Below, piece after piece: positions 1-3,115 of a DNA stretch of 64,000 bases. Under the pieces are notes generated by a model. The model saw only the letters and a program-made list of their open reading frames with translations. It ran no database searches and was not told where the DNA came from. Source of the stretch: Gemmatimonadota bacterium (lineage in GTDB: Bacteria > Gemmatimonadota > Gemmatimonadetes > JACCXV01 > JAHWKZ01); NCBI GenBank assembly GCA_039591175.1, contig JBDHED010000001.1, positions 452 to 64,451 on the forward strand, given 5' to 3'. How positions within the stretch are numbered: the stretch's first letter is position 1; each line of letters begins with the position of its first letter. The translations under genes were made by a program, and so were the position numbers.

Positions 1-716
1 ACGATCAGTCCTGGCCGGCGAGCACGCGCGATTCCGACCGCCTCGGCCACCGTATCGACCTTCGGATGACTAGCACTTCCCTTGGTTGAGAACGACAGCA
101 GCGCGACCCGCGGCTCCTCTCTGACCAGCGCTCGGTGCGTCGCCGCCGATGCGATCGCGATGTCGGCCAACTGGTCGGACGTTGGCTCAGGAACGACACC
201 GCAGTCACCAAAAGTAAATGCGCCCTGATCGCCGATCAGGAGGAACACCGATGAGATGGTGCTAATGCCACGCGCGGGTCCGATAACGCGAATCGCGGCT
301 CGGACCGTCTCCGCGGTCGTCGATAGGTTCCCGGCCACGCAGGCGTCGGCCTCGCCGCGCTGAACGAGGTAGGCGCCAAACACGAGCCGGTCCTCGAGTG
401 CGGCCCGTGCTTCGTCGGCGCTCAGCTCACGGTCGCGGCTCGCCTGTAGAGCGCGAAACCCGTCGGCATACGTATCGAGCCGCGGTGATTGCGCTGGAGC
501 GATGATATCGACGCCGTCGAGGCTAACGCCGGCCTTCTCAGCGGCCTCGCGGATGGCGTAGCCGCCACCCAGCAGTGTCACGTCGGCGATGTTGAGCTCG
601 CTAATCGTCCGCGCGGCCTGCACCGCCCGCGGGTCCGCACCGTCGGCGAGCACGACACGATGATTGTCGGCCGCCGCCCGGCTTCTCAAGTCGGCGATCA
701 GCTGTGAAGGGTTCAC
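1..716 (-). CDS. pta: Phosphate acetyl/propanoyl-transferase (PTA_PTB family, EutD/Pta-like). 5' part only: the gene starts at a GTG at 716 and continues past the left window edge
   Basis: Hand reverse-translation of 716..1 gives (M)NPSQLIADLRSRAAADNHRVVLADGADPRAVQAARTISELNIADVTLLGGG...VFLLIGDQGAFTFGDCGVVPEPTSDQLADIAIASAATHRALVREEPRVALLSFSTKGSASHP... This is collinear with the E. coli Pta C-terminal catalytic domain (RIVLPEGDEPRTVKAA ... [26 protein letters not shown] ... PRVAMLSYSTGTSG). The GTG start overlaps the TGA of the upstream ORF (GTGAAC). Not in the ORF track because it lacks a conventional in-window ATG-to-stop span. Confidence 0.8.
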   Translation of the reverse strand, partial: MNPSQLIADLRSRAAADNHRVVLADGADPRAVQAARTISELNIADVTLLGGGYAIREAAEKAGVSLDGVDIIAPAQSPRLDTYADGFRALQASRDRELSADEARAALEDRLVFGAYLVQRGEADACVAGNLSTTAETVRAAIRVIGPARGISTISSVFLLIGDQGAFTFGDCGVVPEPTSDQLADIAIASAATHRALVREEPRVALLSFSTKGSASHPKVDTVAEAVGIARARRPGLI

Positions 717-1036
717 CGACCCCAGCGGGTTAGGACTCGCTCCGCGATCTGACGTACTTGCGTCGCGTCCGCTTCTGGCACGAGACCGCGGACCCGTTCG
801 ACGACGCGCTCCACGTCGCTCGGATCGCAGGTAGGAATGTGATGACCGGCAGCCGGTGGGTTTGGGGTCTTGACCCTTTCGATCAACTCGATTCCATGGC
901 GATCGGCCTCTTCCCTGGCCAACGGTGTGATGATGGCGTTCTCGGGGACGACCAGTTGAAAGCTTCCGTCGCGGTGCACCGCGCGCACGTCATCAGCAGA
1001 GACGACGGGTCGGCTGCCGCGTCCGCGCATAGTCAC
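713..1036 (-). CDS. 107-aa conserved hypothetical protein, translationally coupled between the ParA-like gene and pta. Function unknown; candidate ParA partner or adaptor
   Basis: ORF MTMRGRGSRPVVSADDVRAVHRDGSFQLVVPENAIITPLAREEADRHGIELIERV... There is a 4-nt overlap (ATGA) with the parA-like stop and a GTGA overlap with the pta start. I could not assign it to EutN, EutQ, DRTGG, STAS or MinE families by eye. Confidence 0.55.
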   Translation of the reverse strand: MTMRGRGSRPVVSADDVRAVHRDGSFQLVVPENAIITPLAREEADRHGIELIERVKTPNPPAAGHHIPTCDPSDVERVVERVRGLVPEADATQVRQIAERVLTRWGR

Positions 1037-1848
1037 GACGCCTGTTTGACGACCGCCTCATCACGCCGGGCGGCCAATCGTTCAGCGATCTCGGCGGCCA
1101 CACTGTAGTAAGCCGCCGCTCCGGTGGAGTTGGAGTCGATCTCGTACAGCAACCGTCCCTCCCGGGCTGCCTCGGCGAGCGCGATGTTGATCGGGATCGG
1201 TTCCCGAAACAGAAGCTCCCCCCATTTGTCTTCCATCGTCGTGAGGCATTCGCGACCGACGCGGGTCCGGCGATCGTAAAGCGTCGCCAAGTAGCCCAAG
1301 AGATCCAGCCGCGGATTGAGTCGCCGTCGGACCTTGTCGACGAGGTCGAGGGTCCGGGGCACGGCATTGAGCGCGAAGGGGTGCGTTTGGACCGGGATCA
1401 CGACCGTGTCCGCCAGTCGCAACGCGTTGACGGTATAGAGAGACAGCGCCGGCGGGACATCGATGATCGCCATGCGGTACGGTAGTTCCGGCCCGGCCTC
1501 CCAGGCGTCAGCCAGGAGCTCCTCGCGGCCTGGGACGTTGGCCAGCTCGGATTCCATTTGGCCCAGGCTTTCGTGGGCTGGGACGCAGAACAACCGATCG
1601 TAGCGAGTCGGCACCGTCGCGCGCGCCAGACCGCCGACCGGGTCGATCAACACATCGGTGACAGTAGTTTCCAGCGTGTCGGGATCGACGCCCAGGTGAC
1701 GAGTCGCCGACGCCTGAGGATCGAGGTCGATGAGCACCGTCTCGATGCCGGTTTCGGCGAACGCGCCGGCGATGTGGACCGCCGACGTGGTCTTCCCTAC
1801 CCCGCCCTTCGCGTTGGCAAACACGAGCGCGTACGGTCGCCGCATCAC
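1033..1848 (-). CDS. ParA/MinD-family P-loop ATPase (Soj-like) with classical deviant Walker A including the signature lysine
   Basis: MMRRPYALVFANAKGGVGKTTSAVHIAGAFAETGIETVLIDLDPQASATRHLG... This contains the KGGVGKTT P-loop and the DLDPQ motif typical of ParA/Soj. No parB or parS was seen nearby. It is embedded between BMC shell genes and pta. Confidence 0.85.
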   Translation of the reverse strand: MMRRPYALVFANAKGGVGKTTSAVHIAGAFAETGIETVLIDLDPQASATRHLGVDPDTLETTVTDVLIDPVGGLARATVPTRYDRLFCVPAHESLGQMESELANVPGREELLADAWEAGPELPYRMAIIDVPPALSLYTVNALRLADTVVIPVQTHPFALNAVPRTLDLVDKVRRRLNPRLDLLGYLATLYDRRTRVGRECLTTMEDKWGELLFREPIPINIALAEAAREGRLLYEIDSNSTGAAAYYSVAAEIAERLAARRDEAVVKQAS

Positions 1849-2456
1849 TCGCTAGCCGGGTAGTAGCGGCTCTCGACCTTTTCTATCGCACCCCGATCGA
1901 GCAACTGCTTGACTGGGCCGATCAGCCGGCGCCACTCCGTCCCAAGCGCCGTCCCGAGATCGGGCAGCGTTATCCCCTGCTCCCCGGCACGCCGTATCGC
2001 CGTCAGGCATCGCGCTTCGAGGTCGGTGACCGAGACCGGTTGGGTCGTAGGCTTTGCGGTGACCTCGGTTGACGAAGCTACGGTCGGTTTGGGCGACTCG
2101 GTCGGCTTCGGGGGTGCGGTGGGTTTCGGGCTCGCTTTGGGACGTTGTCCGATCGGGTAAGTGCCTATCGCCGGGCTCTCGGGCAAGACGTCGACGAGCT
2201 GGTCGGTGGCTTGATGCGGCCGCGGGATGACGTGCACGCTGACCAACTCACCGACCTTGGCTGCAGCTACTGCACCGGCGTCGGTGGCAGCCTTGACCGC
2301 CGCGACGTCGCCGCGGACGAGGATCGTCACCAATCCGGCCTGAGAGTACTCGCGCTTGACGAACTCGACCGGCGCCGCTTTTGACATCGCGTCGGTGGCT
2401 TCGGTGGCACCCACGAAACCGCGGGTCTCGATCAGGCCGAGGGCGTTACCGGCCAT
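1845..2456 (-). CDS. Bacterial microcompartment shell protein, BMC-H (Pfam BMC domain), with Pro/Thr-rich linker and a C-terminal ~60-aa winged-helix/HTH-like domain (EutK-like architecture)
   Basis: MAGNALGLIETRGFVGATEATDAMSKAAPVEFVKREYSQAGLVTILVRGDVAAVKAATDAGAVAAAKVGELVSVHVIPRPH is a canonical BMC-H fold signature. It is followed by PKASPKPTAPPKPTESPKPTV... and then SVTDLEARCLTAIRRAGEQGITLPDLGTALGTEWRRLIGPVKQLLDRGAIEKVESRYY. The start was chosen at the ATG that lies 2 nt after the BMC-T stop; the 5' extension in the ORF track was judged spurious. Confidence 0.85.
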   Translation of the reverse strand: MAGNALGLIETRGFVGATEATDAMSKAAPVEFVKREYSQAGLVTILVRGDVAAVKAATDAGAVAAAKVGELVSVHVIPRPHQATDQLVDVLPESPAIGTYPIGQRPKASPKPTAPPKPTESPKPTVASSTEVTAKPTTQPVSVTDLEARCLTAIRRAGEQGITLPDLGTALGTEWRRLIGPVKQLLDRGAIEKVESRYYPASE

Positions 2457-2458
2457 CG

Positions 2459-3115
2459 TCAGTACCTCACCGGGTCGGCGTACACTGACTTGACTGCTGT
2501 CTCGAAGGCTTCGCACGCCGCGCGGCAGTCGGCCTCGGTTCCAGTCACGAGTGCTCCGCCCATATTCGTCGGCGTCGGCGGCTCGATCCACTCCCCCACC
2601 TGCACGTCGGCCGTTTTGAGTGCCTGATCGAGCCCAAAGACGGCTTCCAACGGCGTCGCCTTGAGGTATCCGATCGCATCGCCACGTTCGATGCCGGCGC
2701 GCTCCGACAGATAACTCCCGGTCTGGGCGACCAGGTGAGCCAGGTACGGCCAGCGCCCCTCGTCGTCAGCCGACCGGTAGCTGACACGCGACTCGAGATG
2801 AGCCAGCGTAGCGTCCATCCCAGCTTCGACTTCCCCGAGCCGGTCTCCGGCCAATATCACGAGGGTCTCGGCAGCCGGTGACTCGATGTTCGAGCGCGAT
2901 GCGTCGCGGTAGAACGTGCGCGTGAATACGACGTCAACGGCGGCTTTCTTGGTCGCTTCGTCGACCGCTACGTACGTGGGGTCGTCTTGATCGACGGTGA
3001 GAAACCCGATCGACGCGTGCGATGGCCGCAAGCCCAGCGCGTCGACCAGCGCTGGTGCGACGTTCGGGATCGTCCGGACCGCTAGAACACGCGGTGCGAG
3101 GGTCGTGGTCACCAT
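2459..3115 (-). CDS. Bacterial microcompartment shell protein, BMC-T (tandem/permuted BMC domains), EutL/PduB-like
   Basis: Collinear with E. coli EutL. [29 protein letters not shown] aligns to [77 protein letters not shown] aligns to [48 protein letters not shown]. The C-terminal [13 protein letters not shown] aligns to GSQAACKAACNAF. Confidence 0.88.
   Translation of the reverse strand: [218 protein letters not shown]

Follow-up and report, generated by a model that had tools for sequence, protein, structure and literature searches.

Gene content of the locus

We analyzed a stretch of 64,000 nucleotides from a Gemmatimonadota bacterium (assembly GCA_039591175.1, contig JBDHED010000001.1, positions 452 to 64,451 of the forward strand), referred to here as the window. 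Its first 3.1 kb hold five minus-strand genes, eutL-like, eutK-like, parA, a small open reading frame (ORF) encoding 107 residues (ORF107) and pta, next to which lie TonB_C and leuS genes (Table 1). The subject of this study is ORF107, whose product an earlier sequence-only reading had left unassigned, proposing either a partner of ParA with an McdB-like role or an accessory part of the phosphotransacetylase Pta. The evidence presented below suggests that ORF107 is probably a stand-alone linker between shell and cargo of a bacterial microcompartment (BMC), of the type found at the N-terminus of EutQ in ethanolamine utilization (EUT) loci.

Both the ORF and its peptide proved to be as that reading had given them. 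The ORF107 start does overlap the parA stop, although the overlap is GTGA (1033..1036), with a GTG start, and not ATGA as claimed; an in-frame ATG lies two codons inside this start (1030..1028) and does not overlap parA. The other junction was read correctly, the TGA stop of ORF107 (715..713) overlapping the GTG start of pta (716..714) in the string GTGAAC. GC contents at the first, second and third codon positions are 0.74, 0.50 and 0.69, resembling those of the neighboring genes, and comparison with four orthologues revealed 31-40 codons differing synonymously and 26-41 differing non-synonymously. Judged from its sequence, ORF107 is a real gene under purifying selection. The translational coupling to parA and pta that had been emphasized is also real, but nothing in it is specific to ORF107: the spacer between the eutL-like and eutK-like genes is 2 nt, counted from the true eutK-like start, the ATG at 2456 (a 248-aa ORF beginning at 2591 extends too far), the start of parA overlaps the stop of the eutK-like gene, and E. 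coli eutP-eutQ-eutT-eutD overlap likewise. Since all five genes are equally tightly packed, coupling is a property of the operon and no special mark of ORF107. Among related loci, the genes for ParA and the ORF107 homologue overlap by 4 nt in about half and are separated by 16-233 nt in the rest.

Table 1. The operon at the start of the window and the parts of ORF107 (aa, amino acids; AF2, AlphaFold2; pLDDT, predicted local distance difference test score; values after Pfam and NCBIfam names are E-values unless given in bits)
Feature	Position	Strand	Description
ORF107 (EutQN)	713..1036	minus	107 aa; near-certain homologue of the EutQ N-terminal linker region, without cupin domain
N-terminal basic stretch MTMRGRGSR (aa 1-9)	1010..1036	minus	R6, G7 and R9 invariant in the window subclade
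N-module (aa 11-53)	878..1006	minus	beta-alpha-beta-beta-alpha-beta; AF2 pLDDT 87-91; corresponds to EutQ H1/H2
Pro-rich linker (aa 54-70)	827..877	minus	disordered, variable in length and sequence; corresponds to EutQ flexible region 42-61
C-terminal helical hairpin (aa 72-106)	719..823	minus	AF2 helices 72-85 and 91-106; ends ...VLTRWGR; corresponds to EutQ H3/H4
pta, 5' part	3..716	minus	EutD-like short-form phosphotransacetylase, cut by the window end; Pfam PTA_PTB 6.5e-64
parA	1033..1848	minus	ParA-family ATPase; Pfam AAA_31 7e-38, CbiA 3e-19; deviant Walker A NAKGGVGKTT intact
eutK-like	1845..2456	minus	BMC-H domain, Pro/Lys-rich linker, C-terminal winged helix; Pfam BMC 3.5e-24, weak winged helix-turn-helix matches
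eutL-like	2459..3115	minus	BMC-T shell protein; NCBIfam EutL 6e-74, 248 bits; 45% identical to E. coli EutL

ORF107 almost certainly corresponds to EutQ's N-terminal region

As the sequence-only reading had it, ORF107 is recognized by no Pfam family (E up to 1) and is a small protein of adaptor type tied to ParA and Pta; what escaped that reading is its homology to the N-terminus of EutQ. The NCBIfam EutQ model (PRK15457) matches ORF107 at model positions 4-98 of 233 (E 4e-9), with a score of 36 bits that is far under the EutQ cut-off of 193. Aligned with residues 1-99 of E. coli K-12 EutQ by hhalign, the ORF107 family profile gave 97.8% and E 9e-13 over 96 aligned columns, and BLASTP with ORF107 alone yielded 31% identity to E. 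coli EutQ over 98 aa (E 3e-9). Two further models, PduM and TIGR02536, match the first half of ORF107 with their C-termini. The end of ORF107 coincides with the point where the cupin domain of EutQ starts, and no PF06249 cupin was detected; ORF107 was rejected as a full-length EutQ (an acetate kinase with a PF06249 cupin), as it ends at residue 107 with no C-terminal cupin barrel. Taken together, these comparisons make it near-certain that ORF107 is homologous to EutQ residues 1-99 across its whole length. This EutQ N-terminal linker module has no Pfam family. An exhaustive profile search with a shallow alignment (A1) gave 34 matches only, and the more diverse profile A2 was required to gather 86 homologues of ORF107. 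Fifteen close homologues (72-93% identity) share 42 invariant residues.

Two AF2 models of ORF107, built from 14 and from 50 sequences, show the same layout, in which two confidently folded modules are joined by a linker and 22 of the 107 residues (about 20%) fall below pLDDT 50. The first six residues (pLDDT <50 for residues 1-6) form an extension present only in the window's own subclade, sister clades beginning with MSRP or MKK. The N-module carries the family motif I-[IV]-T-P-x-A-R and two predicted helices (residues 14-22 and 38-47); across the family, T37 and A40 are invariant and A44 is invariant or nearly so. The linker is predicted with pLDDT <50 at residues 56-70 and is gap-rich in alignments A2 and A5, and the hairpin aligns with EutQ residues about 66-98. 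Foldseek, which had been suggested as a check, returned no match better than E 0.14 in the PDB for either model. No match was to be expected, given that a solved structure of EutQ exists for the cupin part alone (2PYT, residues 100-229 only; PMC4827028).

Half of this region was also encountered outside EutQ-like proteins. The N-module (about 45 residues, I-x-T-P-x-A-R-x-x-A), without a Pfam family, recurs alone in other BMC-associated architectures, its carriers being P0022, P0023, P0025, P0029, P0034, P0036, P0037, P0040 and P0102-P0108. Proteins of about 175-275 aa carry it at their C-terminus, in agreement with the PduM and TIGR02536 hits of ORF107, and it also occurs in tandem copies and in proteins with an RpiB domain (PF02502). 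A weak match was seen at the N-terminus of E. coli EutT (L013 18503..19306; hhalign 43%, E 2.5e-4). In P0018 (1574 aa), eight separate stretches match the ORF107 profile, the best of them to the hairpin half (profile 60-106).

The operon resembles a eut operon with ParA in the place of EutP

The genes around ORF107 encode counterparts of E. coli Eut proteins. Only the initial 238 codons of pta lie in the window; the encoded part is 84% identical to its orthologue in locus L001 (L numbers denote the loci compared here), a complete protein of 337 aa. In L001, Pta and aldehyde dehydrogenase (AldDH) are 49% identical to E. coli EutD and 55% identical to EutE, respectively. The eutL-like score of 248 bits is over the PRK15405 cut-off (198) and under that of the TIGR04502 EutL model (300). 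Orthologues of the eutK-like gene encode 196-202 aa; that of L001 (88% identical) aligns with E. coli EutK over positions 3-161 of 166, winged helix included, and a Calditrichota orthologue matches Pfam EutK_C (2.9e-5). In ParA, the deviant Walker A with its signature Lys and the Walker A' and B aspartates are conserved (NAKGGVGKTT, DLDPQ and D-x-PP in alignment A4), and the nearest solved structure is that of Soj (1WCV, 3e-37), McdA (6NON) matching merely at 4e-12.

Orthologous metagenomic contigs run past the end of the window and encode, in order, EutL-like, EutK-like, ParA, an ORF107 homologue, Pta, an EutM-like BMC-H protein and AldDH; the named close relatives are Gemmatimonadota metagenome-assembled genomes (MAGs). 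This order, compared through L013 with window positions 3..3115 and with L014, is collinear with E. coli K-12 eutS-eutP-eutQ-eutT-eutD-eutM-eutN-eutE-eutJ, and ParA holds the slot of the P-loop NTPase EutP, immediately upstream of the EutQ-type gene, with which it overlaps. At the level of gene order, this looks like a non-homologous NTPase swap. The 64-kb window contains no ethanolamine ammonia-lyase gene, no BMC-P gene, and no tRNA, tmRNA or Rfam family at the gathering threshold. The only BMC-P (EutN-like) ORF seen near these operons is in Calditrichota, on the opposite strand about 3.4 kb upstream (L017 3003..3287, minus strand), in keeping with a BMC gene set that is fragmented (FRAG-like). 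A prolyl-oligopeptidase gene (Peptidase_S9, about 700 aa) separates pta from the EutM-like gene in one subclade of Gemmatimonadota (L005 4699..6855, L006 2517..4625), its start overlapping the pta stop by 1 nt in L005 and 4 nt in L006; the enzyme may be additional cargo or give a hint about the substrate.

ParA and EutQN recur together

The gene-neighborhood survey called for by the sequence-only reading showed that the ORF107 homologue is kept beside ParA and Pta in related loci. A block encoding EutK-like, ParA, EutQN, Pta, EutM and AldDH recurs in Gemmatimonadota, Calditrichota and one Caldisericaceae-labelled MAG, and we found no description of the ParA/EutK-like/EutQN block in the searchable literature. 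The ORF107 homologues are 51-59% identical in divergent Gemmatimonadota loci with this block and about 30% identical in five Calditrichota genomes, the five loci of the latter being all that a genome scan with alignment A3 gave. Look-ups with the ParA profile also found the block, in the Caldisericaceae-labelled MAG and two others. Of 20 BMC-type ParA loci, 19 have EutQN directly downstream of ParA, a count biased by the fact that 14 of the 20 were found through ORF107 itself; among the five found via ParA rather than ORF107, four have EutQN. As control and outgroup we used 78 generic ParA loci, taken from the matches listed in a metagenome scan with the ParA alignment, these matches being mostly generic ParAs, and EutQN was absent from all 78 of these. 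In a neighbor-joining tree, 15 ParAs of BMC operons formed one clade against this outgroup (94% bootstrap), and such a single clade suggests that ParA is an old resident of the operon.

The two genes were also seen apart. In L010, which has no ParA, a stand-alone EutQN follows EutA-EutB-EutC-EutL. Likewise ParA-less, L102 (1..9297) is a complete EUT locus (EutA/B/C, EutL, AldDH, BMC-H, adenosyltransferase, EutJ and a CsoS1D-like BMC-T) in which a cupin-only EutQ (184 aa) is followed five genes later by a stand-alone EutQN (98 aa), so that EutQ is in effect naturally split. In L012, EutQN comes after PduS-PduT, and no ParA is encoded in the stretch, which begins only about 2 kb upstream of the gene. 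Conversely, L032 (3463..7777), from the same ParA clade, encodes EutK-like, ParA, EutM, EutM, an AldDH with an encapsulation-peptide-like N-terminus and EutJ, and its 8.4-kb contig stretch holds neither Pta nor EutQN, the latter giving no match with a profile hidden Markov model.

ORF107 as a probable shell-cargo linker

What residues 1-99 of EutQ do has been worked out, in part by deletions, in Salmonella, where they are required for the association of shell and cargo and are enough on their own to bring green fluorescent protein to Eut BMCs (PMC12487888). Helices H1/H2 attach to the shell where EutL and EutM meet, and H3/H4 are the binding site for the encapsulation peptides of EutE and of EutC (Kd about 7 uM), as established by nuclear magnetic resonance and isothermal titration calorimetry; the cupin domain is dispensable for BMC assembly (PMC12487888). 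In pull-down assays, deletion of EutQ residues 1-100 abolished EutM binding (PMC4827028). ORF107 is encoded with EutL-, EutK- and EutM-type shell genes and Pta, and with a peptide-bearing AldDH in the orthologous loci. Indeed, the AldDH N-termini in 11 ParA-type loci form an EutE-like amphipathic helix resembling an encapsulation peptide, and in the same comparison the Pta N-termini showed no such helix.

On homology and gene context, we favor, as probable, the interpretation that ORF107 links shell and cargo, as a stand-alone protein of EutQ type, in a FRAG-like metabolosome derived from EUT. By analogy with the Salmonella work (PMC12487888), the N-module (residues 11-53) would dock onto the EutL/EutM shell and the hairpin (residues 72-106) would capture the encapsulation peptide of the dehydrogenase. 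The cargo would thereby be tethered to the shell, and the peptide-less Pta may ride along as a passenger. The ParA of the operon would probably position the finished organelle.

Several observations weigh against this interpretation. ORF107 is only about 31% identical to characterized EutQ, so that the linker function is transferred by homology. The window ends within pta, and AldDH with its peptide is seen in orthologous loci only, where the neighboring genes are 84-92% identical. L032 retains a peptide-bearing AldDH with no EutQN within 8.4 kb, and the linker there must be either encoded elsewhere or dispensable. Finally, a purely luminal linker role leaves the strict position after ParA in most loci unexplained.

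Alternative roles for ORF107

That position is the starting point of another explanation, which we regard as unlikely: instead of or besides acting as a linker, ORF107 would be the cargo adaptor of the adjacent ParA and a functional analogue of McdB, its basic N-terminus stimulating ParA and its folded modules gripping the shell, with ParA gradients on the nucleoid spacing the organelles. The 3' position behind ParA in 19 of 20 loci (and in four of the five found via ParA), the 4-nt junction overlap in the window, L001-L004, L016-L018 and L020, the age of the association suggested by the single ParA clade (94% bootstrap), the absence of EutQN from the generic ParA loci among the matches listed, and the location of ParA in the EutP slot upstream of E. 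coli eutQ would all fit such a role. Yet the same domain stands alone in the ParA-less EUT loci L010 and L102 and forms the N-terminus of enterobacterial EutQ, and L032 has EutK-like and ParA but no EutQN. Described hallmarks of McdBs are charge at the N-terminus, high disorder and a C-terminal Trp that is invariant (Tyr/Phe in non-carboxysome candidates) (PMC8359340, PMC11321042), the first and last of these being echoed in the window subclade by three Arg in the first nine residues and by an invariant Trp (W105) three residues from the C-terminus, with Tyr or Phe in the Calditrichota members. However, N-terminal K/R residues are found family-wide, ParA-less members included (MKK or MAKK; MKK in E. 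coli EutQ), and the Trp appears doubtful as an McdB hallmark at family level, since it is replaced by Leu in the ParA-linked P0049, P0050 and P0057 (sister clades ending in ...RLGG) and is absent in L020; in the models, the residue falls in the last helix and may simply belong to the hydrophobic core. ORF107 is also mostly folded, as opposed to McdBs with 41-95% disorder (PMC8359340). Given the MSRP starts, the ...RLGG ends, the MKK/MAKK of ParA-less members and the mostly folded protein, the resemblances to McdB are weak. Furthermore, Salmonella EutQ is encapsulated with the cargo (PMC12487888), a location that would put a ParA adaptor on the wrong side of the shell. If ParA needs a partner in the operon, the EutK-like protein is possibly an equally good or better candidate than ORF107: its gene is translationally coupled to parA and stays with it in L032, and in Salmonella deletion of eutK renders BMCs polar and static, EutK having been speculated to act like ParB through its nucleic-acid-binding tail (PMC12487888). 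A broader version, in which a ParA dedicated to positioning catabolic BMCs replaced EutP and is served by the folded EutQ-type module alone or together with the EutK-like winged-helix tail, seems doubtful to us; if true, the EutQ N-terminus would serve as a general connector between NTPase and shell in addition to linking cargo.

We give little weight to the proposal that ORF107 mainly serves Pta, as an accessory subunit or encapsulation adaptor that brings the peptide-less enzyme to the shell or lumen in trans. It would account for the fact that ORF107 and pta adjoin wherever a ParA-type locus contains them (overlapping by 4 nt in L020 and all Gemmatimonadota loci, separated by 5-17 nt in most others and by 345 nt in L015), that both are missing together in L032, and that Pta N-termini are devoid of an encapsulation peptide; E. 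coli eutQ, too, lies two genes upstream of eutD. However, the stand-alone EutQN of L010, L012 and L102 has no adjacent Pta, stop/start overlaps are the rule throughout such operons, and we found no published evidence for EutQ-EutD binding. The 459-aa database protein P0019, considered as an EutQN-Pta fusion, was set aside: its middle part is Arg/Gly/Ser/Pro-rich low complexity with no recognizable H3/H4 and, judged by eye, is probably a frameshift artefact. The sequence-only reading had also entertained ParA, ORF107 and Pta as a long-form Pta split in three (BioD-like P-loop, DRTGG and catalytic parts). Long-form Pta has an N-terminal P-loop-like domain, and apart from this and the gene order nothing speaks for such a split, to which we attach virtually no credence. 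Neither ParA nor ORF107 matched AAA_26 or DRTGG in Pfam at E up to 1, the long-form model PRK05632 matches the catalytic part only (positions 381-612), the ATPase carries the ParA signature KGGVGKT and is nearest to Soj, the homology of ORF107 is to EutQ 1-99, the orthologous Pta of 337 aa is a full short-form enzyme, and E. coli has the same operon design with the short-form EutD. The adaptor and Pta-specific roles are each compatible with the linker role.

Implications

These comparisons show the linker at the EutQ N-terminus to be a module both autonomous and portable, which can stand alone, be split from the cupin, or lend its shell-binding half as an appendage to other BMC proteins. It could be useful for the annotation of BMC loci and for the engineering of cargo loading. 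To our knowledge, the positioning and inheritance of catabolic microcompartments are largely unknown, only the carboxysome McdAB system having been worked out; for Eut BMCs, we know of only the EutK phenotype and the ParB-like speculation. The locus family described here, spread over Gemmatimonadota, Calditrichota and related MAGs, constitutes a natural system, with a dedicated lineage of ParA placed between shell protein (EutK-like) and linker (EutQ-type), that makes the shell-associated partner of the ATPase directly testable.

Comparison with known systems

FRAG-type BMC loci were described by Sutter et al. (2021) for Gemmatimonadetes as well as for Ignavibacteriae and phyla close to them (PMC8217296). 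The present loci resemble them in combining shell genes with an aldehyde dehydrogenase, in having no signature enzyme and in belonging to the same phyla, the type being assigned by description only; the text of that catalog makes no mention of ParA or of an ORF107-type protein (PMC8217296). Among the proteins of known microcompartments, McdB is similar to ORF107 in being a small protein encoded right after a ParA-type ATPase in a BMC operon, with basic N-terminal residues and, as in the window subclade, a Trp in the last three residues. By contrast, ORF107 is folded, its C-terminal aromatic residue is not conserved in ParA-linked relatives, its family exists without ParA, and the neighboring ParA is nearer to Soj than to McdA. 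For Salmonella EutK, the likeness is with the product of the gene upstream of parA and not with ORF107, and Salmonella has no operon-encoded ParA; the comparison is relevant because the EutK-like protein is a rival partner for ParA. As opposed to the eut operon, ORF107 is preceded by a ParA ATPase rather than the GTPase EutP, and the locus is without ethanolamine ammonia-lyase. Compared with EutQ itself, ORF107 has no cupin/acetate-kinase domain, is about 31% identical and, in the window subclade, bears an Arg-rich N-terminal extension of six residues. What it shares with residues 1-99 of Salmonella and E. coli EutQ is homology over the full region, the order of module, linker and hairpin, and the company of EutL, EutK, EutM, EutD and EutE.

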